From the IMG/VR virus record IMGVR_UViG_3300029288_004944, positions 1 through 64,000 of that record: a DNA stretch of 64,000 nt, one strand, 5' to 3'. Below the pieces are notes generated by a model. That model was not told where the DNA came from, made no database searches, and saw nothing but the letters and a program-made list of their open reading frames with translations. The position numbers and the translations under genes were made by a program. The DNA is from a virus. Its lineage: Duplodnaviria > Caudoviricetes. Shown here in pieces: positions 2,602 to 46,217 of the stretch (position 1 is the stretch's first letter; the number at the start of each line of letters is the position of its first letter).

Positions 2602-2825
2602 TAAAGATAATTTTCATTAAACTCTTTTTGGTAAGATGGGTGCTGTTTCAAATAATCCTCAAACCTATGCAATGCACCAATAATATCATCAAAACCTGTT
2701 AAATCAACGACAACTTCATCCTCTTCAACTATACTATTCTTGTAATCTATATTATATCTTATAAGTTTCAATTTTTCAATAATCTTATTAATTTCACACA
2801 CAGAATAAACCAATTTTTTCTCCAT
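2601..2825 (-). CDS. Hypothetical protein
   Basis: 74 aa; start overlaps the terminase stop. Confidence 0.7.
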   Translation of the reverse strand: MEKKLVYSVCEINKIIEKLKLIRYNIDYKNSIVEEDEVVVDLTGFDDIIGALHRFEDYLKQHPSYQKEFNENYL

Positions 2826-4483
2826 TATACCCTCAGCCTCGGCCCACGAACTACCGATGGCAAAATTTTATTAGAAAACATTTTATTTTTCATTTCTTTT
2901 TCCTTTATAAAGAAAAAATCACAAGCATATATACTAAGTAAATCAGAGTTCACTATATCATCATGAACATCATCAGGACAATTTATCTGAGCATTTGCAC
3001 TAATACCCTTATATGTTTTTTCCATACACTCAACTTGTATCCTATTCTTATAAAAAATATTCCCACGATCATAACAAGCCATTTTAGGATATTTCAGCCT
3101 ATCATTTTCCGCTTCCCAATTCATATGCTCGCACATTGCATTCTTATAGTTCTTTCCTGTAAAAACATCTGTTGACTGATTACTTATACCAACTATACTA
3201 ATTCCTCTTTTCTTTAAATCATCTATCATTGGTGCGCCATACCCACGATCCCCATATCCGGCCACACATTGAAATACGCCTGTACGCGGATGTATAATTT
3301 TTTCAATTTCATCGATCTGTATGGTTGTATCTCCCTGCCACTCTTTTCCAAATACTTTATGTTTTATTCCATTCGTATATTTTTTAAAAATTGATAAAGA
3401 CGTAAAATCATTGGTATTAACTGAGATATTTTCTGAACTGCCTGCAAAATCTAATCCAAAATAATATTCAAAAGCACCTTTTCCCATGGATATTTCAGGC
3501 GAAAACTCCATATTGAACATTAACTCTTTTGCCTTTGCTGAGAATGCAGGGCTGACATTCTGTATCCATTCAAGCAGATACTGAGTTGCAAAATCCTCAT
3601 CATCCATATCTCCTTCACCCTCCCACATTTCGGGGTTATTGGGAAATATTCTCTTTTTCATATTCAAAGACATTCGATCTATAACAAAATTGGGATATTT
3701 AATGCCATTAATCTCAATATATCCTGAAAGCAATAAGATAGGGCACTGAGTCCAATTATATGATAAAACTTTATACATTGTATTCGTAAAGCTATCATGA
3801 AAATGATTTGTTCCACGTGGAACACCTATCTTAACAAGTTTAGTAAATCCACCCCAAGATAACATAGGTAGAATTCTCTCAGAAAATGCCCAATTTGAAA
3901 TTCTTTGAGCCTCATCAGCAATAATTATACCATGAAAACCTTCAATTTCGGCTGTATCAGAAGCAGACATCGCAATAACATATGATCCATTCTTGAATTG
4001 GATCTTATAGGCACTAACACTTTCTATGTAAGTCTTTAAAAATTCTTTACCCTTATCTCCTGCCCGGGTAAGGATCCTACGCATTTCCATAATGATCCTG
4101 GCCGACTGATCAATCTTTGGTCCAAAAATACCAATAGGCAATAATGGAAACAAGGTTGGGAAAAGCAATAAAGCACAAGCAACAGAGAAGGTCTTTCCTC
4201 CTCCACGACTCTCAATAACAACAATATATGGGATTGCCGGATCAATAATATCTCTGATAGTATCAATTTGATTTTGATACAGATGAATGCCCAATTTATC
4301 CAAAATCATTTTTTCTGTATCTATAGAAGCATCAAATACCGAATCAATATCAGTCTTCAATGCTTCTATAACAGAATTTTTAATGATTTGATTATCTCTA
4401 ATAAAATCGGATACAGATTCAACTTTAACCTTATTAGGATCTACCTGCTCTACATCCACATTATCCATACTGTCACATCCCAT
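2825..4483 (-). CDS. terL: Terminase large subunit
   Basis: Walker A ESRGGGKT, Walker B IIIADEAQ, RNase H-like nuclease FGLDFAG ... HDDIVNSD. Confidence 0.92.
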   Translation of the reverse strand: MGCDSMDNVDVEQVDPNKVKVESVSDFIRDNQIIKNSVIEALKTDIDSVFDASIDTEKMILDKLGIHLYQNQIDTIRDIIDPAIPYIVVIESRGGGKTFSVACALLLFPTLFPLLPIGIFGPKIDQSARIIMEMRRILTRAGDKGKEFLKTYIESVSAYKIQFKNGSYVIAMSASDTAEIEGFHGIIIADEAQRISNWAFSERILPMLSWGGFTKLVKIGVPRGTNHFHDSFTNTMYKVLSYNWTQCPILLLSGYIEINGIKYPNFVIDRMSLNMKKRIFPNNPEMWEGEGDMDDEDFATQYLLEWIQNVSPAFSAKAKELMFNMEFSPEISMGKGAFEYYFGLDFAGSSENISVNTNDFTSLSIFKKYTNGIKHKVFGKEWQGDTTIQIDEIEKIIHPRTGVFQCVAGYGDRGYGAPMIDDLKKRGISIVGISNQSTDVFTGKNYKNAMCEHMNWEAENDRLKYPKMACYDRGNIFYKNRIQVECMEKTYKGISANAQINCPDDVHDDIVNSDLLSIYACDFFFIKEKEMKNKMFSNKILPSVVRGPRLRV

Positions 4484-34375: not shown

Positions 34376-34729
34376 TTATTCTCTTATTCCAACAACCTTA
34401 ACTAAATGAACATTTTCAATCTTTCTCCTGTGTGCCTCTCTTTCTATTTGACCTATCAAGGACTGCAATACCCAATCCGGATTATGCGATTGAACTTGCT
34501 CATTATAAACTTGTGCCCATTGAACAAACACACGAGATGCAGATGCATCTAATACCCTCTGCCCTATTCGTATTGTCATTGTATCATAATCTTCATTCTT
34601 AACTAATTCATATTTACGCACTAATTCCTCATATCTCTGACCGGGAGTTTGATGTTTTGTTTTTATATCAGCATCACTAATTTCATCATTTTGTCCCCAC
34701 CTCTTTATCATAATATCTATTAAGCCCAT
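34376..34729 (-). CDS. RW-leader family protein, body type A
   Basis: MGLIDIMIKRWGQ. Confidence 0.8.
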   Translation of the reverse strand: MGLIDIMIKRWGQNDEISDADIKTKHQTPGQRYEELVRKYELVKNEDYDTMTIRIGQRVLDASASRVFVQWAQVYNEQVQSHNPDWVLQSLIGQIEREAHRRKIENVHLVKVVGIRE

Positions 34730-34745
34730 GGCTGCTCCGATACAC

Positions 34746-35153
34746 TCATCTTACTCCCTTATAAGTAAATAAACCACCACTAATTTCCCTTCCCTCTCCC
34801 TCGCATTGTTTCCCTGCTCTTTCTACAATCTGATCTATCAAGTATCTATATGATTTCGCATTCCCCCACATTTTTATATAGTCATAGGAAACAAGTGCCC
34901 ATATTGGCCTTACTCTTTCATCTTTCAATAGACCACTCATTACCTTACTGTTAAAATCCTCTACTATATTAATAGATAAATTATCAACACTTAAAGAAAA
35001 CATTAAATTATACTTTGAAACTAAATTAAACAACTCGTTGGCTTCTGTGCGATTAAACTTTAAGTCTCTTTTAAAGAGCCTATAAAGTTCCTGCCTTTCA
35101 TCTTCTTTTACAGGATCTCTCCATCTTTCTATCATCACATCTATTATATTCAT
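34746..35153 (-). CDS. RW-leader family protein, body type A
   Basis: MNIIDVMIERWRD; WALVSY...LIDQI. Confidence 0.8.
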   Translation of the reverse strand: MNIIDVMIERWRDPVKEDERQELYRLFKRDLKFNRTEANELFNLVSKYNLMFSLSVDNLSINIVEDFNSKVMSGLLKDERVRPIWALVSYDYIKMWGNAKSYRYLIDQIVERAGKQCEGEGREISGGLFTYKGVR

Positions 35154-35160
35154 TTTATCC

Positions 35161-35349
35161 TTATGTTAAACCACTTGTTATATGTAATCCATTATACCAA
35201 CGACTCCCCTTGACAGATATTATTTCTTCATTTCCATCTCTTGTTTCAATTGTGCGTTGCAGATACGTTGCATAGCATTCATATTCATTCTTTTTTTCAT
35301 CTATTACATCCGGTCCCCACCGTCTTATCACATCACATATTAAACTCAT
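35161..35349 (-). CDS. RW-leader family protein (short)
   Basis: MSLICDVIRRWGPDV. Confidence 0.7.
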   Translation of the reverse strand: MSLICDVIRRWGPDVIDEKKNEYECYATYLQRTIETRDGNEEIISVKGSRWYNGLHITSGLT

Positions 35350-35802
35350 TTATTTCTCCCCACTATCCTTCTTCTCCTGTTCTTGTCTTAACCAAGGTCT
35401 GTCATAACACTCTCCCACCACCTGTGTTGCATACTCATTGCATATACGTTCTTCAAAATCCTTTTCGTGGGCATCATCTCCTGACAGATCTTCTTCTTTC
35501 GGAGATCCACTTACTCTCCATAAGATCATTCTTAAACCCGATCTATATACATTATAATGCGCTATTTCGTGGTACGTAATCCAAAGAACTGAACTATCTA
35601 TTTCACTTTCATCATTAAATATATAAATACATTCATCCTGAAAATATGTAAAACCCCTTGCTTTTAATATATCTTTATCATCTCCTGTCCAACCCTTAGC
35701 ACGCATAAACCCTACTTGATCGGACTTAGATATAAACGTCAAATATAACCCAAACGATTTTGCTACTTTCCTGCATTCGGCCATACCTTGTTCTGTTATC
35801 AT
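35350..35802 (-). CDS. Zincin metallopeptidase (ImmA/IrrE-like)
   Basis: YHEIAHY HEXXH motif plus downstream EERICNEYA. Confidence 0.75.
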   Translation of the reverse strand: MITEQGMAECRKVAKSFGLYLTFISKSDQVGFMRAKGWTGDDKDILKARGFTYFQDECIYIFNDESEIDSSVLWITYHEIAHYNVYRSGLRMILWRVSGSPKEEDLSGDDAHEKDFEERICNEYATQVVGECYDRPWLRQEQEKKDSGEK

Positions 35803-35820
35803 TTATTACATCTCCTTTCA

Positions 35821-36339
35821 CTATCTCGGACCAGGATACGATGTCATTCCATCACTATCATTTTCTTCATCTTCACCCGATGATCTAATATTATCTATCC
35901 ACCTACCTCTCTGTGCTGCTTCAAGAACTAATCTATCATTGCCCACTATTACTTCTTCATCTCTTCTTTGAGCGGCTCTTTGAACACTCATTTGAGCCTT
36001 TAGTGCCTTTTCTTCGCACAATCTTTCTATTCTTGCCTCATCACTCATTTGTCCTATAAGATATTCTTCTATCTTATCAAACAAATATTGATGCACATTC
36101 TCTACACCAATCTCTTTGATCTCATCATATGAAACCCTAATCATTGCAGACCAAACAGTAAGTTCACATTTAAAAATTGTTATTTCCTTAATTTCAGACT
36201 GGTCAGCATACATTAAATGATTTTCTCTCATAAGATTATATAACTCAATAGGTATTAAACCAACATATCCTGACCATTGATTCTTTACCCTACTATTGTC
36301 ATTTCCCCATCTTCTGATTACATTATCTATTACACTCAT
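35821..36339 (-). CDS. RW-leader family protein, body type A
   Basis: MSVIDNVIRRWGND; IRVSY...LFDKI. Confidence 0.8.
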   Translation of the reverse strand: MSVIDNVIRRWGNDNSRVKNQWSGYVGLIPIELYNLMRENHLMYADQSEIKEITIFKCELTVWSAMIRVSYDEIKEIGVENVHQYLFDKIEEYLIGQMSDEARIERLCEEKALKAQMSVQRAAQRRDEEVIVGNDRLVLEAAQRGRWIDNIRSSGEDEENDSDGMTSYPGPR

Positions 36340-36343
36340 TTTA

Positions 36344-36688
36344 TTACTGTCCCCCACCTATTTCTTTTATTCTACTCCAATATACATCTTGTGGCAAAGA
36401 ACTCTGCATTCTTCTTATAATCTGACCTAAAAGTATTCCAAATATATCTTCATCAGTATATCCCATTTTGTCTTTATAACTAACATCTGCCCAACAATTA
36501 CGAAGTGAATCATCACTTTTATCCACTAAAAGTATTCTACCTGATTGTTTATCATCTACAAGTCTAAGATTGTTTATTGCTATTGCTTTCTCTAATGATG
36601 CCTCAAATGAAGAGATAGGACAATTTGACTTGTCCTTTATCATTTCTTTATCTTTCCACCTATTAATCATTATGTCTATTATACTCAT
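36344..36688 (-). CDS. RW-leader family protein, body type A
   Basis: MSIIDIMINRWKD; WADVSY...LLGQI. Confidence 0.8.
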   Translation of the reverse strand: MSIIDIMINRWKDKEMIKDKSNCPISSFEASLEKAIAINNLRLVDDKQSGRILLVDKSDDSLRNCWADVSYKDKMGYTDEDIFGILLGQIIRRMQSSLPQDVYWSRIKEIGGGQ

Positions 36689-36700
36689 TCTGAACTCCCC

Positions 36701-37060
36701 CTACCTTACCCCCGAACTTTCCATCTTTACCCCACACTCTTTACACCCATCCCACAATAAAGACATGGGCAATCCTATCTCTTCTGCCGATCTTTCAATC
36801 TGTTTAGACTTTGGTATCCGGCCACCCTTTTTCTTATTATAAACACGCGTCCATTTCTTTTCTTTATTCATATCCCAATCGCCTCTTTCAAGATAAGAAC
36901 AATAACCATTGGCTTGATCAGGTTTATCTTTTCTTAATGACCAATAAGGACAAACCCCTGGCCGAAAACCTTTACCATACATACTATGACAATATGGGCC
37001 GGCAGGAATCCTTCTCTTATCTTTCTTTAAACCTACAACATTCTTTGCTATTGATTTCAT
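36701..37060 (-). CDS. Cys-rich hypothetical protein
   Basis: IPAGPYC...CPYW...GYCSYL...LLWDGCKEC. Confidence 0.75.
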   Translation of the reverse strand: MKSIAKNVVGLKKDKRRIPAGPYCHSMYGKGFRPGVCPYWSLRKDKPDQANGYCSYLERGDWDMNKEKKWTRVYNKKKGGRIPKSKQIERSAEEIGLPMSLLWDGCKECGVKMESSGVR

Positions 37061-37380
37061 TTCTTTAATCCCCTTGCTTTCTGTTTATTAGCCTTATCCC
37101 ATTTCCTATTCTCTTTTATCTGCTTCTTTTCTTTTGCTTTCCAATCACCACCCACTTTCTTATTACTCACATTTCCTATCGTTACTTCCATTGGCCACTC
37201 ACTTGGACACTCCACTCCATCAGGAACGATTATTTTACTAACCTTTGCTCCATTGATATACAACTTATTCTCAACTACTGCGATATATAACCATTCTCCA
37301 TTCTCTGCCTTAACCCACTCAGGATTTACTATCTTCATTATCTTTTCCTCCCCTCTACCTATACTTTCAGTTGGTGTCAT
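37057..37380 (-). CDS. Hypothetical protein
   Basis: ORF coupled to the next gene; true start may be the internal MKIVNP. Confidence 0.65.
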   Translation of the reverse strand: MTPTESIGRGEEKIMKIVNPEWVKAENGEWLYIAVVENKLYINGAKVSKIIVPDGVECPSEWPMEVTIGNVSNKKVGGDWKAKEKKQIKENRKWDKANKQKARGLKK

Positions 37381-37405
37381 TTTGACACCGACTCATATTC
37401 CCACC

Positions 37406-37795
37406 CTACTTCTTTTTCTCTTTAAACTTAGGCTCTGTGTTTGTCATTATTGATACAGCCAGGATTAACCCATTAGCCATACCCATAAAATATTCTTCAT
37501 CCAAACAAGCCTGCTCATCTTTACATTGTATATCTCTTACATTGATAAGATCTTTCAAGTTCTCTTCTAATGGTTTCTTTTGATCATATTTACCCATCTT
37601 AACAAGAGCAGATAATTTGGATTGTATTCTTTCTGCTTTCGTTATACTACCATTTACCACACCACTCTTCCCGCCTTTCAGTTCATCACATTCTGTGACA
37701 GACTGACTTTCTTTTAACTTTCTTTCTCCTAAATTAAGAGTAAGCCCATCATCATTCATTGTCATTGCTTTTAATTCACGTGTAAACTTATTCAT
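37406..37795 (-). CDS. Hypothetical protein (MNKF leader)
   Basis: MNKFTRELKAM; C-terminal YFMGMANGLILAVS helix. Confidence 0.75.
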   Translation of the reverse strand: MNKFTRELKAMTMNDDGLTLNLGERKLKESQSVTECDELKGGKSGVVNGSITKAERIQSKLSALVKMGKYDQKKPLEENLKDLINVRDIQCKDEQACLDEEYFMGMANGLILAVSIMTNTEPKFKEKKK

Positions 37796-37836
37796 TTAGA
37801 TCTCCCAAGTTCTTTCTCACTCTCTTTCTTATTGTC

Positions 37837-38082
37837 TTATTTACTCTCTTCATTGTCTTCGGGAAACTCCGGCACACCTGCCCATTCTAACAACTGAACA
37901 TCTCCAGGTTCTATATACTCTGCAAGGCTTTGTAATTCTGCAAGTTCAAGATACGACATACTTTCATTAATTATTTGTTTTCTTAAGTATTCCAATCTTT
38001 CTTTGATGTGTTTCATATCTATTGCTTCTTTATCTATTCCACCACCTGCCAATTTATGTAGTTCTTTTTGAAACTTATTCAT
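37837..38082 (-). CDS. Small acidic protein (MNKF leader)
   Basis: MNKFQKELHKLA; LLEWAGVPE; AGGAGGAG RBS. Confidence 0.75.
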   Translation of the reverse strand: MNKFQKELHKLAGGGIDKEAIDMKHIKERLEYLRKQIINESMSYLELAELQSLAEYIEPGDVQLLEWAGVPEFPEDNEESK

Positions 38083-38168
38083 TCAACTCCTCCTTATCCC
38101 CACATTTTCTATATTGCTTACATTAACTATATCATTTAATTTATTTATTACTATTGTTACTATCAATT

Positions 38169-38435
38169 TTATTTTAACATACTAAGTATAGCACACACAT
38201 TGTCATTTGTCAAATAATGAACTAATTTATTATTATTATACTTTTTTGCTACTCTTCGAATTGTTCCATCTTCTATGTCTTTCCATCCAAGGATTTCCAT
38301 ACCCACTATCTTATTACGACTATCCAAATCCACAATTATATTCTCGCCTTCCCTCACAGTTTTTTCTATCTTATTATCAGATACATAAACATATACTACT
38401 CTTGCTTCTATATCATATGTTATTTTCATTCCCAT
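38169..38435 (-). CDS. DUF2283-family protein
   Basis: KITYDIEARVVYVYV...IIVDLDSRNKIVGMEIL. Confidence 0.8.
   Translation of the reverse strand: MGMKITYDIEARVVYVYVSDNKIEKTVREGENIIVDLDSRNKIVGMEILGWKDIEDGTIRRVAKKYNNNKLVHYLTNDNVCAILSMLK
38185..38213 (-). promoter_or_regulatory. Sigma70-type promoter P3, inside the 3' end of the DUF2283 gene
   Basis: TTGACA-AATGACAATGTGTGTGC-TATACT (17-bp spacer). Confidence 0.75.
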
Positions 38436-38472
38436 TCTCCTCTGTTAATCTTTTCAACACTTTCCCCTTTCT

Positions 38473-41400
38473 CTATTCCACCCTACCCGCCTCTACCACA
38501 ACTCCCCCATTCATGCTATAAACTTCACCTGTGTCCATATCTTTAATCTCATTTATCATTACCTTAGATCCTGGAATTAACTTTATCTCACTCTCAGGGT
38601 AAGGTATATCAGCATCCCCTGTATTCTTTTGTAATGTTTCTATCCAATCTACATTTTGTTTACTTACTTCACCTTTCACCACTACTTCCGGCCACCCCTC
38701 ATTTGATTCCCCTTTTGCATTCTCATAAACTGTGGCCTGTCCTAAATCCCATGTCCAATACACACCCATAGATGGCCAATCTTCTAATAGGAGTTCATCT
38801 TTAATACTCTTTACAAATTCTTGTACATCCTTTACTGCTAATGCTCTAAATACCGGAAAAGGATCTGTGAACCCTAAAAATCTCTTCTTAGATGCTTCAA
38901 ATGCTTCTATTGCTTCTTCGGGATAGTTCTGATAGAACTCATCCACTTCTCCACCCGGCTGATCATTGATCAGATCTTCTATTGTTATATTCTCCAAGGA
39001 TACAGATGCTTTTCTTTTCAATCCCCTATATTCGCCATACTTCTTTATAAATTCTTCTATACTATAAAACCCATCCTCACTTTGAGCAAAGGTCTCAACC
39101 AAAATCTTACGTGGTTTAAAGTTTATAATTATATCAAACCATTTCCTAAGAGTATCCACATTCTCTACCTCAACACCCATTAAATTATTCTGTTCCATTC
39201 TTACTCTTGTCCATCCTAACAATATTAATGCTTCTATCTTATTATTATACTCAGGTATTGTAATTCCATATTCTTCTTTTAACATCTCTATATTATTAAA
39301 TATCCATTCTTCGTGTTCTCCCGTAGATTCTTCTACTCCAACATTATATATCTTACCCACAGGATCAATCCAGTATGCACCCAAATTTCCTTTTGCTGCT
39401 TCTTTTAATCTCCCCTCTATCTCGAACTTCTCTATTGTCGTATCTTTCTTAGACAACTCTATCTCTTTTATCTGCCACTCTATTTCCGGTTCTTCATCCA
39501 CCAACTCCTCCGTCTCTCTTAGTTTCTTGCCTTTCTTTAAATAGGCTATCGTGATATGCGGAGTGTAATCAAAGTCATCCTTGACTTCAAACTCTTTGGC
39601 GAGATCGGAGTGAAGTTCTTTCAAATCTTGAGACTCTAATTTCAGCACAGCCACATCATATTCTTTACTGTGAGTGAAATAATCTATCTTGGCGATCTTG
39701 GCGATTAATTGGCGATTGGCCACAAGTGATTGAATATCAGATATAGAGGCAGAGTCAATACCATAGCAAAGGGTTGTGTGGGGGGATGGGGGAAATCCTC
39801 CATCCATCTCATTACTTTCTGCATCAGACAGATCTTCTTTTGGAATACTGTTTTGAACTTTCTTTATCCATTGTTTTAACTCTTTTGGTATGTCAGACGT
39901 TTGCACACTACCATGATCGTAATCTGCTCTTATTACTATCCCACCTCTTCTTATCAACACTCCCACTTTCTCGGATGTTAAATGTTCTTCATCTCCTACC
40001 GTTAATTCTAACTCTTCTTTGTTTACTATCCGATCTTTTGAAATTGAATTATCTATCACTATATCCCCACCTATTAAATCAGGGTGTGATTCTATATAAT
40101 GTTTGAATATTAGATCTGCTCTATCGTCTTCTGCCACACCCTCTTCCCCCTCACTACTTTCCCCATATGTTTCCTCTTCCGGATATAACTTATCATACTC
40201 TGCTACCGGCCACATTATCTCTATATCCACAGAATCAGGGCTATTTGAATTCATTGCCCTATATGATTTCTCACCCAACACTGTATAAACGATACCAAGG
40301 TCTGTATCCTCAGCCCTAAGCCCATTTTCCAATATACTCTTTACATTCTCTCTGCTTGTTTGGTGGTGCAGGTCCACACCATTGGGATACTTATTCTTTA
40401 ACATCTCTATGAACTGTCTTTGATACTTTCCCATATCAAGATCATATTTCTCCCCTTTAACCCTACCCCTCATACTCGCACTTATCTTACTCCCATCCTT
40501 ACCTTCTTCTTTTGTGTGATACTTCTGCACTGTGCTATATTGTTTATTCTTTAAATCCTCGGCAAGATCATATATATCACGTATAACATCATATATCTCT
40601 TCTGCTTCTTTATTTTCCTCTTCTCCTGCCTCATCATACGCCCACGATAATATCTGATCAGAACTATGCCATGTTGATATAAGTTCATCCATTGCTTGCA
40701 ATATAGCCATTGGATCAATTGCTGATTTCAATTTCTCTATTTTCTTATTTACTTTATCCCAAAACCTTCCATACTCTTTTTCTTCAAATCTTCTACTTCT
40801 TTCTAACTCTTCAGGCGATACTCCCACTCTCTCCATAAGCGATAATATAATCTCTTTTGACTTCTCTGCTACCTGTGGATCTATTTCTCCCACTATCCCC
40901 TGCCTATATAACTCTTTAATCGTTTCTATATCGGATAGAGATAGCGAAGACAATTTGTCTATTTCGCCTCTCTTATTAACCTTTAACTCTTTCCACTCCC
41001 CTACTTCCCATTGCCCCATCTCTTTCTCAGACTTTATACCCTTCCCCTTTCTTTCCCCACCACCGTTTGTTATCTCCACTCTTAATATACCGTTCTCTGC
41101 CCCGGTCCCCACCACATAATCTTCACTATCATTTAATGTTTCCCCCACTTCCTCCGATAAATAACCCTCATCATCATATTCTGTATATGTATATCCGATT
41201 ACACTCTCCCCCACAGAGGCGGCGATGGAAGGAAATCTATCTGCCATAAACTTATCTACGGCTTCATTGTGAGTAAGACCTTTATACTCCGGCTTTTGAT
41301 ATATTGCTACCCAACATGGTTCCCCCCAATACTCATAGTATATTATCTTATCGCCTGCATTGATTACAATTACCCAATCCTCTGATCGTACCAAATCCCA

Positions 41401-41799
41401 CTGCCCCACACTTACATCTTTCTCAGGGTATGCCTTTTTCTTTTTAGCCATCTCTATATAATTCTTTCTCATTGAATCAGATTCATATTGTTTACTTTCT
41501 TTCTTTATTCCTACACCTATCCCCCCACTATTACTTGCCTCTACCTTTAGCGTAGCAGGCAATAGCCTTACTCCCTTCATACCACCAAACTCTAATAGAT
41601 CGTTTGCAGTAGCCAAACTTATAGCCTTTAACCCAATAGCCATTGTATACTTATTCTCTGCTACCTTGCGAGCCCAAGACAATAGAGATATATTCTTAGT
41701 CCCCCCCAATGTTTTTATGGCCTCAGAAATTAGTTCATTGGTGTCTATATTTAAGTCAGATAAATTTATAACTAAAGTATATCCGGATTGTTTTTTCAT
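38473..41799 (-). CDS. Polyvalent protein with two ART-like domains and a 2H phosphoesterase
   Basis: LHHQTS...SILENGL (H-type ART-like); PHTTL and PHITI (2H); VFRAL...GVYWTW...VDW...ESEI (R-S-E-type ART-like); start probably MKKQS after GGAG, ORF open to 41880. Confidence 0.8.
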   Translation of the reverse strand: MKKQSGYTLVINLSDLNIDTNELISEAIKTLGGTKNISLLSWARKVAENKYTMAIGLKAISLATANDLLEFGGMKGVRLLPATLKVEASNSGGIGVGIKKESKQYESDSMRKNYIEMAKKKKAYPEKDVSVGQWDLVRSEDWVIVINAGDKIIYYEYWGEPCWVAIYQKPEYKGLTHNEAVDKFMADRFPSIAASVGESVIGYTYTEYDDEGYLSEEVGETLNDSEDYVVGTGAENGILRVEITNGGGERKGKGIKSEKEMGQWEVGEWKELKVNKRGEIDKLSSLSLSDIETIKELYRQGIVGEIDPQVAEKSKEIILSLMERVGVSPEELERSRRFEEKEYGRFWDKVNKKIEKLKSAIDPMAILQAMDELISTWHSSDQILSWAYDEAGEEENKEAEEIYDVIRDIYDLAEDLKNKQYSTVQKYHTKEEGKDGSKISASMRGRVKGEKYDLDMGKYQRQFIEMLKNKYPNGVDLHHQTSRENVKSILENGLRAEDTDLGIVYTVLGEKSYRAMNSNSPDSVDIEIMWPVAEYDKLYPEEETYGESSEGEEGVAEDDRADLIFKHYIESHPDLIGGDIVIDNSISKDRIVNKEELELTVGDEEHLTSEKVGVLIRRGGIVIRADYDHGSVQTSDIPKELKQWIKKVQNSIPKEDLSDAESNEMDGGFPPSPHTTLCYGIDSASISDIQSLVANRQLIAKIAKIDYFTHSKEYDVAVLKLESQDLKELHSDLAKEFEVKDDFDYTPHITIAYLKKGKKLRETEELVDEEPEIEWQIKEIELSKKDTTIEKFEIEGRLKEAAKGNLGAYWIDPVGKIYNVGVEESTGEHEEWIFNNIEMLKEEYGITIPEYNNKIEALILLGWTRVRMEQNNLMGVEVENVDTLRKWFDIIINFKPRKILVETFAQSEDGFYSIEEFIKKYGEYRGLKRKASVSLENITIEDLINDQPGGEVDEFYQNYPEEAIEAFEASKKRFLGFTDPFPVFRALAVKDVQEFVKSIKDELLLEDWPSMGVYWTWDLGQATVYENAKGESNEGWPEVVVKGEVSKQNVDWIETLQKNTGDADIPYPESEIKLIPGSKVMINEIKDMDTGEVYSMNGGVVVEAGRVE

Positions 41800-42079
41800 T
41801 AGTTTTTTTACTCCAAAAAATATTATATATTTATGATTTCTCTTGTTCTTTCTAAGGTCTGAACTAATTACTTTTTGCATTTCTTAAAGTTAAAGGTGTC
41901 TGCGAGATAGATTTTTTTCGCTTTTTTCCATACTTCTATATATAAACTCTCTCTTTCCTCCCATATTCCCCCACCTTGTCTCCCCTTTACTCCACCTTTA
42001 CTATTCTTTTCTCCTTCTTTTCTCTAATCTTTCCTACTTAATACCCCCGTCACTGCATCATTATGACACAAACCACTCT

Positions 42080-42454
42080 CTACTCATATATCTCCACTAC
42101 CTCACTCTTACCCTTCCATTGTCCTATCCAATAGTCATCAAGATCTATCTTTACAAAATTATCATACACAAGTTCAGCCCTACCCATAACTATACAATAC
42201 TTGGAAGGCTTATCTAAAAAACCTAAGGTACCAAACCTATTAATACACACAAAACTACCACATACTAACTTAGTTGTCACTCTACTCATTGGTATCTTCT
42301 TATTGTTCTTGTCTATCTCTAATACCCAAAAAGACTTATCTGCCTTAGTAGAATGAAGATTTATAAACCTATAACCGTGTGGCGATATAAATTCTTTATC
42401 TTCTATATTCTTTCCCTCTCCCCACCTCTCTATCATTGTTTCTATTATTCCCAT
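42080..42454 (-). CDS. RW-leader family protein, body type B
   Basis: MGIIETMIERWGE. Confidence 0.8.
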   Translation of the reverse strand: MGIIETMIERWGEGKNIEDKEFISPHGYRFINLHSTKADKSFWVLEIDKNNKKIPMSRVTTKLVCGSFVCINRFGTLGFLDKPSKYCIVMGRAELVYDNFVKIDLDDYWIGQWKGKSEVVEIYE

Positions 42455-42472
42455 TGCTTCTCTCTCCCCTCT

Positions 42473-42790
42473 TTATACCTTTCCCTTATACTCAAACAAA
42501 TCTATTATTACAGCATCTGTATCACTTACAGAAACATCTATACTTTCGGCTGCTATACTTGCGATCCTTGCTTTAATTGCATAATATGGCCGAGGATCTC
42601 CTTCATAGTAAAACCCTGATCCATCAAAATAAATAAAAGCACTGTCTCCTACTCTTTTAACATCAACATCACAAAGCCTATACATTTTTCTTTCCGCATA
42701 AGGATACTCTTTTAACTTATATATCCTTATCTTTCTATCTCCTACTATATCTTTCCCCCACCTATTCACTATCGTATCTATCACACTCAT
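42473..42790 (-). CDS. RW-leader family protein, body type B
   Basis: MSVIDTIVNRWGKD after GGGGGAG. Confidence 0.8.
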   Translation of the reverse strand: MSVIDTIVNRWGKDIVGDRKIRIYKLKEYPYAERKMYRLCDVDVKRVGDSAFIYFDGSGFYYEGDPRPYYAIKARIASIAAESIDVSVSDTDAVIIDLFEYKGKV

Positions 42791-42806
42791 CTTGTACTCC
42801 CCCTTA

Positions 42807-43223
42807 CTACATCCACCTTTCAAAATCTCTTTGCTTATTCTTCTGTTTAAACACTTCTTCTACCACTCTTAACCCTCTCCACTTCTCTTTCCAATATTCA
42901 TTAACATCTATCCTCATACATTGCCCATTCCCATTTCTTGATATATCCTTTACTATACCTATATATGCTTTGTTTGATGTGGGCAAATTACTGGAAAAAA
43001 TCAATTGATTGCTATCACTTATAGTTATTATGTCTCCATTGCCAAGTATAAGATTTTTATCTATACATCCACTATATCCTTCTTTATCTATTTCTAAATA
43101 CCAATCGCCAGCACCTAATTGAAAACCATCACACATTCTATACACAAACCTGTATCCATTTTTACTCTTTATAGTCTTAACATCTTTTGCCCATCTCTTT
43201 ATCATAATATCTATTACATTCAT
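42807..43223 (-). CDS. RW-leader family protein, body type B
   Basis: MNVIDIMIKRWAKD; shares GYRF and YW..W.G..VVE with 42080..42454. Confidence 0.8.
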   Translation of the reverse strand: MNVIDIMIKRWAKDVKTIKSKNGYRFVYRMCDGFQLGAGDWYLEIDKEGYSGCIDKNLILGNGDIITISDSNQLIFSSNLPTSNKAYIGIVKDISRNGNGQCMRIDVNEYWKEKWRGLRVVEEVFKQKNKQRDFERWM

Positions 43224-43255
43224 AACTTCTCCACTACCTTTATTTCTTTAACCTT

Positions 43256-43603
43256 TCATATAGCAGGATCTATTCCTACCCATTCCACAACATACATCTT
43301 GCCAAAATCTCTTGTTCCATATACTTTGACACATACACTTCCATCAGGTTCGTTTATACAATCAATAAGTCCGTGCTGACAATTATCAGGATGTTCTTCA
43401 TTCTCATAATAGAACAAACCTTTATCATCAAAATAAACACAACTACTCTTTCTTATTATAGAAAGATCTGCATTTAATACTCTATACCTTTGACAATAAT
43501 CTTCCCCTAGAATATATCCATTATATCCTTCATTGACTATTTCCACTTCTCTGTGCCCGGCATCCGGCTTCCATCTACCTATAATTACCTCTATCAAGTT
43601 CAT
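43256..43603 (-). CDS. RW-leader family protein, body type B
   Basis: MNLIEVIIGRWKPD; VYFDDKGLFYYE resembles IYFDGSGFYYE of 42473..42790. Confidence 0.8.
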   Translation of the reverse strand: MNLIEVIIGRWKPDAGHREVEIVNEGYNGYILGEDYCQRYRVLNADLSIIRKSSCVYFDDKGLFYYENEEHPDNCQHGLIDCINEPDGSVCVKVYGTRDFGKMYVVEWVGIDPAI

Positions 43604-43871
43604 GCTCTCGTCCCCCTCTGATCCTCTCCATTGTTTGATGCCATAACACACTATTTCTCACTGCCGTTAATTGTTGCTGTAAAACTTGATTTCTTTGCAA
43701 AACATAACTTGTTTCAAGATCATACCGTGCTAATGAATTTATTGCATCCAACATAGATCCTGTTGTTATTTCACTTTTATTAGGCATTGAGATACAAGTT
43801 TCTGCTTTATCTTCCTCTACCTCTTTATTATCCTGTCCCCACCTGTGGATTATAATATCAATTACACTCAT
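43575..43871 (-). CDS. RW-leader family protein (helical body)
   Basis: MSVIDIIIHRWGQD. Confidence 0.75.
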   Translation of the reverse strand: MSVIDIIIHRWGQDNKEVEEDKAETCISMPNKSEITTGSMLDAINSLARYDLETSYVLQRNQVLQQQLTAVRNSVLWHQTMERIRGGREHELDRGNYR

Positions 43872-44275
43872 AAATTTATCCTATAAGCACTCATTGCATC
43901 GTATGCATCCACCGAAATATCTGTAAGAGTTCCCCTCATATTACTTCCTACGCATACAACCGTACCTTTCATTAATCTTACAACATTTGTTTCTCGATCT
44001 TTTTTAGGATCTCTATACATATATATTTCATTTGTTCCTCTTGCAATCCCATCATACCCCATTTTTTCTCCGGTATCACTTACTATGCTTATATATGAAC
44101 CATCAAGTGCAAAATCCACTTCATCTCTTAGTTTGGCCTTTAATCTCTTTCCATAAAGATTATGTATAAAATATCTATCAGCCTTCTTCCCTTTTGTAAT
44201 ATAAATAGGCAAGTCTTTATTTACTCCTTTTTTCCTACTATCCCATCTTGAAAGCATTGTTTCTATAACACCCAT
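43868..44275 (-). CDS. RW-leader family protein, body type B
   Basis: MGVIETMLSRWDS after GGGGGAG. Confidence 0.8.
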   Translation of the reverse strand: MGVIETMLSRWDSRKKGVNKDLPIYITKGKKADRYFIHNLYGKRLKAKLRDEVDFALDGSYISIVSDTGEKMGYDGIARGTNEIYMYRDPKKDRETNVVRLMKGTVVCVGSNMRGTLTDISVDAYDAMSAYRINL

Positions 44276-44298
44276 CCTAAACTCCCCCACACATATCA

Positions 44299-44574
44299 CT
44301 AACTTCTCATTCTTATCGTGTTTGCATCTACTATGGATTCAACTAACCCCAACACTCTCCCACCATTATAAGAACCTACATCCGGAGAATAAACATGCCC
44401 ATTGGCATCAGCACAAACAAGACCGTTTACTTGAAAATCTCTACTATTATCCACATAAACTTCCCACAACTGTCCCTTAGGAGACATAAACACATTATTG
44501 GGAAAATCATTACAATTCTTTTTTTCCACCACATCCGGACCCAATCGTTTAATAATATCTTGTTTTATATCCAT
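44299..44574 (-). CDS. RL-variant leader protein, body type B
   Basis: MDIKQDIIKRLGPDV, identical to the N-terminus of 45795..46217. Confidence 0.8.
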   Translation of the reverse strand: MDIKQDIIKRLGPDVVEKKNCNDFPNNVFMSPKGQLWEVYVDNSRDFQVNGLVCADANGHVYSPDVGSYNGGRVLGLVESIVDANTIRMRS

Positions 44575-44584
44575 TTCTTAATTC

Positions 44585-44818
44585 CTATTTAAAAAATACT
44601 ATCTTTAATGGCAAATCTTTCAATAAATTAGGGATTTGATCTTTTTTTAATTTAATTTGATCTTTACGTTTAGAACAAAAACTCTTATTAAATGTATCTA
44701 AAACAATTTCCATTAATTCAATGCATTTCCTACAATATACATGTTCTTTGCCCATTATATGAAATATCCCTATTTTATTTTTTTCTCCACACCTATCGCA
44801 CACTTTATTCCTTTCCAT
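44585..44818 (-). CDS. Small zinc-finger protein
   Basis: CDRC...YCRKC. Confidence 0.7.
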   Translation of the reverse strand: MERNKVCDRCGEKNKIGIFHIMGKEHVYCRKCIELMEIVLDTFNKSFCSKRKDQIKLKKDQIPNLLKDLPLKIVFFK

Positions 44819-45008
44819 TGTATACCTCCCCCTTATTTATTTAACCTGACTTTTCTCCAACTGTATAGCCCTGCGTTTCATATCATTTTTAGACATAGTA
44901 AAATTACTTATAACAACAACTGAAAGAATTATTATTATGACTGACACTATCAAAACATTTATCCAATCTATTTTATTGTTTTCTCCCATTTGTATCCTCC
45001 TACTTTAG

Positions 45009-45278
45009 TTAGGCTTCTTTATCTTCCGTAAGACTGCTATCTGCTTCGCTAAGGATATTCTGCATATCTTTCTTTGATTTTGGCACAGGAACTTTTTTAT
45101 CTGCCACATTGAACCATCCATATTGAGCAAGTATACCGATCAAAACCCATCCCCATTCCGGAGAAGGATTTCTTCTTGCCATAAGACACACTAAGAGCAT
45201 AGCCAACAAACAGAGTAAGAACTTTCTGCTCAGCATTGAACTCTTTAAACTCTCTTTCTTATTTTCTGTATTTGCCAT
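45009..45278 (-). CDS. Probable holin / small two-TM membrane protein
   Basis: SRKFLL then two hydrophobic segments and a charged tail. Confidence 0.5.
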   Translation of the reverse strand: MANTENKKESLKSSMLSRKFLLCLLAMLLVCLMARRNPSPEWGWVLIGILAQYGWFNVADKKVPVPKSKKDMQNILSEADSSLTEDKEA

Positions 45279-45293
45279 TTCTCTTAATCCTCC

Positions 45294-45773
45294 TTACATT
45301 TCTCTTTTTTTCTGTTTTATTATTCTATATTTTACTCTTTTGTCTAATTCAATTCCTGGATTTTCATAGTTCGTCATCATTCTTGCTATAACAGGCACTA
45401 AATCCTTTTGACCAAGTTTTTTTGCTCGTTTCATACAAATCTCAGGATCTGTGGGTATATGTATAAATTCCAAATCATAATTATATTCTCTTGCCAAACT
45501 AATCCAATGAAGTCTTAAAGAAAAAGTAAGAAACGTACCATCTACTAAAATATTCTTATTTTGATCTAAAAAATATCTGGCCATAAACTTAATTGTTGCC
45601 CAAACAAGATCTTCTGCCGGAGCATAAAACCTTTGACCATGAACAACAAGCCTCATATCATCAGGACAAAGATATATATATTCAGGATTTTTCTTTAAAA
45701 ACTTCTTAGCATATGTCGTTTTTCCAGATCTCGGATATCCCATCATAAGAATCATCTTATTTCTTTTCTTCAT
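45294..45773 (-). CDS. P-loop kinase (AAA_33 / polynucleotide-kinase-like)
   Basis: MMGYPRSGKTT, PDDMR, ILVDGT, CMKRA. Confidence 0.85.
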   Translation of the reverse strand: MKKRNKMILMMGYPRSGKTTYAKKFLKKNPEYIYLCPDDMRLVVHGQRFYAPAEDLVWATIKFMARYFLDQNKNILVDGTFLTFSLRLHWISLAREYNYDLEFIHIPTDPEICMKRAKKLGQKDLVPVIARMMTNYENPGIELDKRVKYRIIKQKKREM

Positions 45774-45794
45774 TTATTACCCCCTTATTCCTTT

Positions 45795-46217
45795 CTAATC
45801 CCCAAACTCTCTATAATCCCGGAAACCATGCATTTCCCTATCAAGTTCAGGGTTGTCGCCATCAATCTCAATACTCCCCCTAAAATCATTATCAATTGAA
45901 AAAGCAGACCTATCATCAAAATTATCATGCAATGGAATAGTTATAAATAATTGTTTTGGATTGTCAGATATACCACTAAGTGTGCCAACAACTTTACAAT
46001 CCTCAGGAAGTGTTGCCCCTATTTCATTTGCAAATAACCTACTATCCTCTGCCACACAAACAAGATCTCCTATATGCCACCCTATTATATCAATATTACT
46101 AATTCTAAATACAGCAGCCGAAATCCTGCTGAACGTATACTCATAACAACCCTTTAAATTTTTATTTACTTTAACATCAGGGCCCAATCGTTTTATAATA
46201 TCTTGCTTTATATCCAT
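45795..46217 (-). CDS. RL-variant leader protein, body type B
   Basis: MDIKQDIIKRLGPDV; GDLVCV...VVGTL. Confidence 0.8.
   Translation of the reverse strand: MDIKQDIIKRLGPDVKVNKNLKGCYEYTFSRISAAVFRISNIDIIGWHIGDLVCVAEDSRLFANEIGATLPEDCKVVGTLSGISDNPKQLFITIPLHDNFDDRSAFSIDNDFRGSIEIDGDNPELDREMHGFRDYREFGD

Follow-up and report, generated by a model that had tools for sequence, protein, structure and literature searches.

A polyvalent protein of an uncultured phage-G-like jumbo phage is predicted to join two different ADP-ribosyltransferase-fold domains and an Acb1-like phosphodiesterase

Alt of bacteriophage T4 is a head-packaged, protease-trimmed ADP-ribosyltransferase (ART) which is injected into the host. 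Acb1 of the same phage, the subject of a study by Hobbs et al. in 2022, is reportedly a small protein that is made after infection. The polyvalent proteins that phages and conjugative elements encode were described by Iyer, Burroughs, Anand, de Souza and Aravind in 2017 (PMC5512222). Their typical components include H-Y-D ARTs and 2H domains, which are predicted to degrade immune nucleotides (PMC5512222, PMC9503650); 2H domains of this type are never associated with RNA ligases, and ARTs of the R-S-E clade are said to be absent from genuine polyvalent proteins (PMC5512222). It has been argued that to degrade immune signals and modify the machinery of the host pays most while phage transcription has yet to start (PMC5512222). 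Ten or more ARTs have been reported from phage G (PMC9503650), and a processing logic in which KptA is followed by a 2H enzyme has been described for jumbo phages (PMC7824862).

The window analyzed here comprises 64,000 nucleotides (positions 1 to 64,000 of IMG/VR record IMGVR_UViG_3300029288_004944). By sequence comparison its source is an uncultured giant (jumbo) phage, distant kin of Bacillus phage G, which is the closest cultured relative as judged from the portal protein (34.7% identity, E 1e-74) and the large terminase subunit, TerL (33.7%); overall DNA similarity between the two phages is nil. The viral record is about 45% complete, which defines the scope of all searches made of it. 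Within it neither a prohead protease nor a MuF or tail sheath protein was recognizable, and a search for a macrodomain partner of the DarG type found no match to Macro or NADAR.

The ORF of interest, P0001, occupies 38473..41880 on the minus strand as 1135 uninterrupted codons, from the first of which residues are numbered below. Of the two candidate start codons, the ATG at 41799 is preceded by a GGAG at a distance of 11 nt, whereas the one at 41880 lacks a Shine-Dalgarno site, so the start at 41799 chosen in the initial annotation is the better one; translation likely begins at M28, giving a product of 1108 aa. The N-terminal region (aa 28–116; 41533..41799, minus strand) had no local phmmer match among the 150 best relatives.

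Beyond this region the protein is composed of at least six modules, designated A to F, each of which has stand-alone relatives of its own and whose relatives recur inside proteins of 1,500–3,100 aa. The D-E-F fusion must be real, since an independent contig reproduces the same order at 72% identity (P0002). Every motif quoted in the initial annotation was present at its assigned place in the translation, and the motif and model matches of the modules are far beyond chance. The ORF, its modular make-up, the folds and the conservation of the catalytic residues are established. Judging from sequence profiles and structural models, P0001 joins two different ART-fold domains and an Acb1-like phosphodiesterase on one chain.

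Module D (aa 640–822; 39415..39963, minus strand) is the predicted Acb1-like 2H phosphoesterase. It carries both HxT motifs, PHTTL at aa 700–704 (39769–39783) and PHITI at aa 774–778 (39547–39561), and the columns of H701/T703 and H775/T777 are invariant or nearly so across 36 sequences. P0001 exceeds the cut-off of 27 bits for both PF13563 [2_5_RNA_ligase2; 48 bits, E 1.8e-12, or 55 bits for module D alone] and PF23474 [Acb1; 35.9 bits, E 7.5e-9, or 40.1 bits for the module alone], and 33 of the 36 family members also match PF23474. When the family profile was compared with the PDB, Acb1 was the best solved relative [9q2g, E 6.7e-11; 9q2y, 1e-8; 7t26, 2.4e-6], followed by YjcG [4.2e-5], PH0099 [8e-5] and CPDase [4.4e-4]. 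The Acb1-like 2H module proposed earlier is thereby supported, and on these profiles module D appears nearer to characterized Acb1 than to 2H enzymes of the LigT/CPDase type. It probably degrades bacterial cyclic oligonucleotide immune signals. Because the broad PF13563 model outscores PF23474 on this module within Pfam, the substrate may also be an RNA end or a 2',3'-cyclic phosphate.

Module C (aa ~470–625; 40006..40473, minus strand) is predicted to have an H-[H/Y]-D ADP-ribosyltransferase fold. An H-type ART-like module had been proposed here from the motifs LHHQTS (aa 504–509; 40354–40371), SILENGL (aa 515–521), IVYT (aa 530–533) and DIEI (aa 552–555), and the AF2 model (pLDDT 80.1, pTM 0.75) and its structural neighbors agree with that proposal. 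Foldseek found KptA/Tpt1 (E 9e-3, probability 1.0), VIA found DarT1 (Z 7.0, rmsd 3.9, 121 aa) and Tpt1 (Z 7.2, rmsd 3.4, 89 aa), and both the 50 best rows from 48,161 PDB representatives and the 50 best re-aligned Foldseek matches were all of ART fold. Weak matches of the family profile to the PDB were to DarTG (E 0.004) and KptA (E 0.011). In an alignment of 10 sequences H506, G520-L521 and G604-G605-D606 are invariant (H506 and D606 in 10/10 each), position 532 being Y in 2/10 and H in 6/10. Secondary structure assignment of the model by DSSP places H506 on strand 1, Y532 on strand 2 and D606 at the start of the last strand, and H506, Y532 and D606 (in GGDI) are the candidate catalytic residues. 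DIEI, which the initial annotation listed for this module, is not the catalytic motif: its E554 sits on a strand that comes earlier, the residue being E in no more than 7/10 sequences, and the conserved acidic residue is D606 of the invariant GGD.

Named ART families tried for module C were rejected. PARP (PF00644) scored 12.8 bits against a cut-off of 26.7 (homologs 13–16 bits); DarT (PF14487) did not match P0001, its best score for a homolog being 17.6 bits against a cut-off of 22.5; and full Tpt1/KptA (PF01885) gave no match at E≤1, the N-terminal RNA-binding lobe with the Arg-His-Arg of the tetrad being absent. The structural matches cover only residues ~85–182 of the Tpt1 chain, which constitute the NAD lobe.

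Module F (aa ~960–1135, folded as aa 975–1135; 38476..39003, minus strand) is modeled as a minimal R-S/T-ExE ART fold. Its motifs FRAL (aa 1011–1014), GVYWTW (aa 1039–1044) and ESEI (aa 1096–1099; 38584–38595) contain the key residues R1012, T1043, E1096 and E1098. Among 80 aligned sequences R1012 is found in 80/80, position 1043 is S in 54, T in 22 and A in 4 (S/T in 76/80), and E1096 and E1098 are each present in 77/77 non-gap sequences. The AF2 model (pLDDT 83.7, pTM 0.80) has R on strand 1, T on strand 2 and ExE starting a later strand, as expected of the C-terminal R-S-E-type module which had been suggested for this region. VIA gave TreTu/TreX (Z 5.7), IcmQ (5.5), TreX (5.4; rmsd 2.9, 91 aa), PltA (5.3) and pertussis S1 (5.2), and nearly all of the 50 best rows in both VIA searches, including the one of 48,161 PDB representatives, were of ART fold. 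Foldseek, which the initial annotation had recommended, placed R-S-E toxins weakly (E≥0.03) at the top ranks for module F. Modest Z scores such as these (≤7.2 for C, ≤5.7 for F) can by themselves reflect common structural arrangements, and the ART assignment of the two modules therefore rests on lists that are almost entirely ART and on residue conservation. Several phage G proteins are among the fold neighbors of module F. Its family has about 80 members, is known only from metagenomes and has no Pfam model; its stand-alone relatives carry a fused NUDIX or GNAT domain.

The remaining modules, A, B and E, appear from sequence searches to correspond to no described domain. Module A (aa ~121–245; 41146..41520, minus strand), which also exists as stand-alone proteins of about 125–150 aa, has the invariant columns S-D..R, E, C-W, K..Y..L and R and found no match in the PDB, Pfam or the Atlas. 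Module B (aa ~306–460; 40501..40965, minus strand) is helical-looking, and its aa 309–452 have one clear relative in residues 444–599 of P0051, a 985-aa protein that also has a sub-threshold Phage_Mu_F match (25.4 bits against a cut-off of 29.6 bits). Module E (aa 823–953; 39022..39414, minus strand) is a YWIDPxG...H..W...GWxRV domain, represented here by YWIDPVG (aa 836–842) and GWTRV (aa 889–893). It had been recognized from the outset as a separate module, correctly so; giant relatives contain it up to seven times, often beside a 2H domain. An Atlas search with module E was without match, and phrog_1615 was its only match, a weak one.

We assign P0001 on sequence grounds to the polyvalent class of Iyer et al., which the initial annotation had not named, because it combines six modules, three of them different predicted enzymes, because its phage encodes a portal and TerL, and because it has modules in common with giant proteins bearing LPD, MuF or portal domains. 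Thus P0024 (2,539 aa) contains LPD38 and a relative of module C, P0131 (3,110 aa) contains LPD23 and a 2H relative, and P0122 (1,640 aa) contains a portal domain and a 2H relative, together with a sub-threshold match to PF01885 (Tpt1).

We consider it fairly probable that P0001 is a polyvalent effector of a phage-G-like jumbo phage, whose unrelated domains are turned against the host as infection begins; the substrates, the delivery by the virion and the cleavage of linkers are parts of this proposal that we infer. The protein would enter the host from the virion along with the DNA, and a phage maturation protease would sever the modules from one another at L-K-x-x-A-[SA] linkers. Module C would spend NAD+ to ADP-ribosylate a host macromolecule, either a protein or a nucleic-acid end or base; module D would cleave cyclic oligonucleotide immune signals, CBASS-type or related, such that host effectors are not triggered; and module F would most likely mono-ADP-ribosylate a host protein. 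The motif L-K-x-x-A-[SAK] occurs three times in P0001 against 0.17 expected, always at module borders, a statistic which is optimistic because the motif was defined post hoc. LKVEAS (aa 111–116) ends the N-terminal region, and LKEAAK (aa 825–830) and LKRKAS (aa 954–959) flank module E; the two sites in the half shared with P0002 are kept there as LKEAS and LKRKAN. Given these linkers at module borders and the portal and MuF fusions among relatives, packaging in the virion and processing by a protease are plausible, as would suit the pre-made payload proposed in the initial annotation.

It is possible, if rather doubtful, that the same multi-enzyme effector is not packaged at all, being the product of an early or middle gene which acts as one uncut cytoplasmic protein, so that the portal and MuF fusions of its relatives would be irrelevant to P0001. 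The position of the gene can be read either way: it lies about 34 kb from that of TerL, amid small genes of unknown function, a gene for a PNK-like kinase (45294–45773) and glycosyltransferase genes, but it shares both its strand and a long block with the portal and TerL genes. The Pfam search found no portal, MuF or LPD domain in P0001 itself and no maturation protease was recognized in the incomplete record, both of which would suit an unpackaged protein, as would the small size and post-infection synthesis reported for T4 Acb1. Linker motifs at module borders and the repeated occurrence of module relatives within portal-, MuF- and LPD-bearing giants argue to the contrary, and such an effector would be most useful before phage transcription (PMC5512222).

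An unlikely elaboration is that P0001 is a polyprotein. A maturation protease of this phage-G-like lineage, so far unrecognized, would cut after L-K-x-x-A and free separate enzymes in the capsid or the host, namely a KptA/DarT-like ART, an Acb1-like nuclease and a member of a new minimal R-S/T-E ART family with the motif G-x-Y-W-[ST]-W-D. Module E would then serve as a reusable spacer or packaging unit for cargo in the giant relatives, and module C and the 2H domain would not be independent effectors but would form a coupled pair, with nucleic-acid ends or ADP-ribose cyclic phosphate as substrate.

Quite improbable, in our estimation, is a function in nucleic-acid end-healing, in which module C would act in the manner of Tpt1/KptA on 2'-phosphate or 5'-phosphate ends of RNA or DNA, the 2H domain would hydrolyze ADP-ribose 1''-2'' cyclic phosphate, the by-product, or open 2',3'-cyclic phosphates, or do both, and the two modules, with the PNK-like kinase encoded nearby, would repair tRNA or RNA that anticodon nucleases of the host had cut. 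The best matches of module C, Tpt1/KptA and DarT, are indeed nucleic-acid enzymes, and the second-strand residue of its family is mostly His, of the H-H-h type; the match, however, is to the NAD lobe only, without the RNA-binding lobe or a PF01885 hit, and the sole conserved Arg of the family falls after strand 2. A 2H domain and the sub-threshold PF01885 match occur together in the portal fusion P0122, and the KptA-then-2H logic has its precedent in jumbo phages (PMC7824862), but the 2H profile of module D favors Acb1, with an E-value about six orders of magnitude below that of CPDases of the LigT type. Neither RNA ligase (PF09414) nor RtcB was found in the record (~45% complete), polyvalent 2H domains are never found with RNA ligases (PMC5512222), and the second ART would be left unexplained.

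That P0001 is homologous to T4 Alt, and hence an R-S-E ART of Alt/VIP2 type which a capsid-targeting sequence brings into the head and a gp21-type protease trims, is scarcely credible, for although module F has the R-S/T-ExE arrangement and an ART fold, neither P0001 nor any of 80 relatives of module F matched Alt/VIP2 or any other Pfam ART family at E≤1, tblastn found no match at E≤0.1 in 50,697 phage records, T4-like phages included, the closest structural neighbors (TreX/TreTu, pertussis S1 and PltA) are not of VIP2 type, a search of the record for an S77 (gp21-type) protease, run without a positive control, came back empty, and the leader common to the small genes adjoining P0001 is absent from its N-terminus, so that the link to Alt drawn in the initial annotation was not sustained.

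As a polyvalent effector, P0001 would offer a compact and testable case in which counter-defense, through cleavage of immune signals, and host takeover, through two distinct NAD+-dependent transferases, are combined on one chain. It also brings to light a predicted H-[H/Y]-D ART family with a Tpt1/DarT-like core, known only from metagenomes, and the R-S/T-ExE family with its YW[ST]W motif, while module E would be a repeat-type unit structuring giant phage proteins. Should packaging and linker cleavage prove true, P0001 would serve as a documented example of the way in which enzyme cargo is loaded and released by jumbo phages of the phage G kind.

In comparison with known systems, the resemblance to T4 Alt is a functional analogy only, that of a phage ART possibly delivered with the DNA; the architecture is different, and packaging is established for Alt and plausible for P0001. 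Acb1 of T4 and its relatives (PF23474; 7t26, 9q2g) shares with module D the 2H family, two HxT motifs and a score above the gathering cut-off. Acb1, however, stands alone and is about 150 aa long, whereas module D is embedded in a 1135-aa chain, scores higher with the broader 2H model, and has a cyclic-oligonucleotide activity that is predicted. Module C resembles Tpt1/KptA and DarT both in its NAD-binding ART core and in the L-x-H-x-T ... SIL..GL motif of the first strand and helix, at 17–21% identity across 85–121 aligned residues (Z 7.0–7.2). It differs in lacking the N-terminal RNA lobe of Tpt1/KptA, in PTS_2-RNA, DarT and PARP Pfam scores that are absent or below cut-off, in the placement of its Asp in an invariant GGD and in a family-specific insert (Y..L.PEE.TY, Y...HP.L). 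The small R-S-E ART toxins (Rhs TreX/TreTu, pertussis S1, PltA, cholera/LT A1) resemble module F in fold and in the placement of R, S/T and ExE. No sequence relationship is detectable, Z being only about 5.5, and module F, which is extended by helical structure at its N-terminus and has a family-specific G-x-Y-W-[ST]-W-D motif, belongs to a phage protein with neither immunity-protein nor B-subunit context.

Phage G, a 497-kb myovirus, is similar in its portal and TerL proteins and in its own reported complement of ARTs, but no counterpart of module C or module F was found in it by tblastn. The nearest likeness is to the polyvalent proteins, with which P0001 shares its many unrelated domains, the H-Y-D ART with a 2H domain, the setting in a phage with portal-terminase packaging, and modules which are also present in LPD-, MuF- or portal-bearing proteins. 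Unlike these it has no LPD, MuF, portal or zincin domain recognized by Pfam, and it adds an R-S/T-E ART as well as the three modules that match no described domain. The class and its predicted role have already been published (2017, 2022), and P0001 is a further example.

The gene considered here is a single open frame of 1135 codons on the minus strand of the window (38473–41880). The ATG at 41880 is without a ribosome-binding site and GGAG lies 11 nt upstream of the ATG at 41799 (M28), so that the latter, already chosen as the start in the initial annotation, is the likelier one. The gene is preceded by an intergenic stretch of about 200 bp (41881–42079) which is purine-rich (GA-rich on the coding strand) and in which no convincing sigma-70 promoter was found; a promoter scan of the region performed no better than shuffles, and scanning around the gene revealed no clear flanking terminator. 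At least 13 small ORFs flanking it on both sides (34376–46217, minus strand) open with one common leader, M-x-h-I-[DE]-h-h-I-x-R-W-G (or MDIKQDIIKRLGP), followed by bodies unrelated to each other. This leader is absent from the N-terminus of the large protein.

HMMER was run exhaustively against 1.84 billion representatives to gather relatives, and the 1340 matches were grouped in separate blocks along the query. Local mapping of these matches set the borders of modules A (aa ~121–245, 16 stand-alone relatives), B (~306–460, one relative), C (~470–625, nine relatives), D (~640–822, more than 100 relatives), E (~823–953, a repeat unit in giant proteins) and F (~960–1135, stand-alone relatives). 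Modules C, D and F are predicted enzymes whose folds can be assigned and whose catalytic motifs are intact. The domains noticed in the initial annotation are confirmed, and its interpretation is upheld in part. A phmmer search of the PDB with the whole protein gave only a chance calponin match.

Module D exceeds the Pfam cut-off of 27 bits for both PF13563 [1.8e-12, 48 bits] and PF23474, Acb1 [7.5e-9, 35.9 bits], and also matches PHROG 755. In a 36-sequence 2H alignment both histidines and their threonine partners, H701/T703 and H775/T777 in this protein, are invariant or nearly so. The best PDB matches of the family profile are solved Acb1 structures [9q2g, 6.7e-11; 9q2y, 1e-8; 7t26, 2.4e-6], with LigT/CPDase-type entries next at 4e-5 or worse. 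The Pfam scores, the conserved His/Thr pairs and these profile matches justify the term "Acb1-like" of the initial annotation as a statement of similarity. We infer that the substrates of module D are cyclic oligonucleotide signals, which it would cleave.

For module C, sequence taken alone points weakly to an ART: the module itself scored 12.8 bits on PARP and its homologs 13–18 bits on PARP and DarT. A 10-sequence profile produced short PDB matches [DarTG, 0.004; KptA, 0.011; DarT1, 0.021], all falling on the first-strand/helix motif. Foldseek with the AF2 model (pLDDT 80.1, pTM 0.75) placed KptA/Tpt1 at the top [9e-3, probability 1.0], and in a Foldseek-independent search of 48,161 chains all 50 matches listed were ART folds, led by DarT1 (Z 7.0, rmsd 3.9, 121 residues) and KptA (Z 6.9). 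Re-alignment of the Foldseek candidates gave Z 6.6–7.2 for 16 Tpt1/KptA entries and DarT1, though, as the search tool warns, a Z below 8 may come from an arrangement that many proteins share. The ART-fold assignment is made because every place in the list goes to a fold that is rare in the PDB and because the conserved residues suit ART catalysis. H506, on the first strand, is conserved in 10/10 sequences; position 532, on the second, is Y or H; and D606 begins the last strand within an invariant GGD. The "DIEI" previously proposed as catalytic motif sits on an intermediate strand and varies among the relatives; its place is taken by D606. Scans of viral and metagenome contigs with module C added one new sequence only, and comparison of its profile with that of module F gave no relationship (probability 0.5%).

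Modules C and F would carry out NAD+-dependent modification of host targets beside the cleavage of signals by module D. The main functional rival is that C and D form an RNA/DNA end-modifying pair. This would accord with the resemblance of module C to Tpt1/DarT, with the known KptA-then-2H chemistry (PMC7824862), and with a PNK-like gene nearby: a P-loop kinase of 159 aa at 45294–45773, 3.4 kb upstream [PHROG 505 "polynucleotide kinase," 1.6e-20], the only match in a PHROGs scan of 19 small neighbor proteins. Against such a pair stand the preference of the 2H profile for Acb1, the missing RNA lobe of module C, and the failure of family searches to find an RNA ligase or RtcB in the 139-kb viral record. 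The same record yielded no Macro or NADAR, nor recognizable MuF, tail sheath, or S77 and S78 proteases; at a completeness of about 45%, and for a very divergent phage, these negatives carry little weight. We favor signal cleavage and NAD+-dependent modification over end-modification. That module C is itself a Tpt1 is rejected, since it matches the NAD lobe of Tpt1 alone and lacks the RNA lobe.

The first alignment of module F combined three proteins with nine viral contigs, and its sole invariant columns were R, G-Y-W-T-W and E-x-E. A word-based search with the single sequence found nothing, and relatives emerged only with the alignment as query: 77 stand-alone proteins, around 210 aa long and lacking a Pfam domain. 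A few relatives are fused to NUDIX, GNAT or DUF192 (P0181, P0182, P0187 and P0208); a NUDIX fusion in this YW[ST]W ART family fits ADP-ribose chemistry. In the resulting 80-sequence alignment R1012 is conserved throughout (80/80), S (54), T (22) or A (4) stands at position 1043, and E1096 and E1098 are found in 77/77. In the AF2 model (pLDDT 83.7, pTM 0.80) the first strand carries the Arg and the second the Thr, and a later strand opens with ExE.

Foldseek E-values for module F were weak (0.03 or above), the top ranks being PltA/PltC, pertussis S1, cholera A1 and Rhs ARTs. In an independent structural search essentially all 50 matches listed were ART-superfamily folds, including IcmQ (Z 5.5), TreX (Z 5.4, rmsd 2.9, 91 residues), PltA (Z 5.3), pertussis S1 (Z 5.2) and the ART domain of a cyanophage pre-ejectosome protein; a second search gave TreTu/TreX at Z 5.7. 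In BFVD the best matches are uncharacterized phage proteins [3e-6], and lower ones include several phage G proteins as well as some proteins annotated as head-morphogenesis or structural. The profile met only a chance match in the PDB, in the helical leader. Our conclusion is that module F represents an uncatalogued family of minimal R-S/T-E ARTs. Homology to T4 Alt and membership in Alt/VIP2 are rejected: none of the 80 members matched a Pfam ART model at E≤1, and tblastn of module F in 50,697 deposited phages found no match.

Module A (41146–41520) belongs to a family of stand-alone phage proteins of about 125–150 aa with invariant columns S-D..R, E, C-W, K..Y..L and R, a pattern that suggests an enzyme or specific binder; PDB, Pfam and Atlas offered no lead. 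Module E (39022–39414), with the motif YWIDPxG...H..W...GWxRV, recurs as a repeat in giant phage proteins (P0003–P0050). It occurs in up to seven copies per chain in proteins of 1,000–2,650 aa, frequently together with module D, and one protein (P0050) consists of three copies and nothing else; it has no match in Pfam, PDB or Atlas.

Only P0002, a JGI protein from an 8.8-kb contig, is co-linear over a long stretch, sharing D-E-F at 72% identity, while its N-terminal half differs; modules are therefore exchanged between relatives. An assembly chimera is dismissed, since an independent contig reproduces the D-E-F fusion. Of module A, the swapped half (aa 1–435, L001:711–2015) retains no more than the first ~40 aa, and a PDB search gave no match for this half. 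A "VGEWKEL" junction, found also at aa ~293–299 of our protein, is followed by VYRG...HYTT...NEYIVF, which may represent a further R-S-E-like module.

At about 33%, the G+C content of the window is low, and the minus strand carries nearly all of its genes, among them the portal (133–1791) and large terminase (TerL, 2825–4483); glycosyltransferases, an AAA ATPase and a DUF7007 protein of 2246 aa are encoded as well. The nearest cultured relative is Bacillus phage G [portal, 34.7% identity, 1e-74; TerL, 33.7%], and from these identities of about 34% we regard the phage as distantly related to the phage G lineage, from which it differs in being much more AT-rich. Megablast of the region against 50,697 phage records showed no DNA-level similarity, and tblastn of the whole protein and module C against the same records found one 2H match only, in an uncultured 636-kb phage. 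PADLOC gave no match. The same protein is also encoded on a 216.8-kb contig in the protein collection.

Delivery from the virion would rest on the fusions of relatives, the strand common with TerL and portal, and a linker pattern. L-K-x-x-A-[SAK] is found at three sites, aa 111, 825 and 954, each time at a module border (3 observed versus 0.17 expected, a probability that is optimistic, the pattern having been defined after viewing the sequence). A variant, SKISAS, lies at aa 464, and two more copies occur in the 2246-aa neighbor. Surveys have argued that phages, myoviruses and jumbo phages above all, often package their ARTs in the head (PMC9503650; PMC7824862). Among the relatives, P0024 (2,539 aa) joins LPD38 to module C, P0131 (3,110 aa) joins LPD23 to 2H, and P0051 has module B with a sub-threshold MuF match. 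In P0122 (L019:2487–7409, 1,640 aa), where the portal protein itself bears enzyme cargo to an extreme degree, the fusion partners are an Acb1-like 2H domain, a sub-threshold Tpt1/KptA-like stretch and a pterin-4a-carbinolamine dehydratase domain.

What marks the published "polyvalent protein" class (Iyer et al. 2017, PMC5512222) is that a single phage polypeptide combines enzymatic domains unrelated to each other; this protein is a fresh case, holding two ART families and three modules, all uncatalogued. ARTs are the commonest protein-modifying domain of that class, and its 2H domains were proposed perhaps to degrade the nucleotides of nucleotide-activated defense systems (PMC5512222). The ARTs described for polyvalent proteins (Iyer et al., PMC5512222) have the same H-Y-D arrangement as module C.
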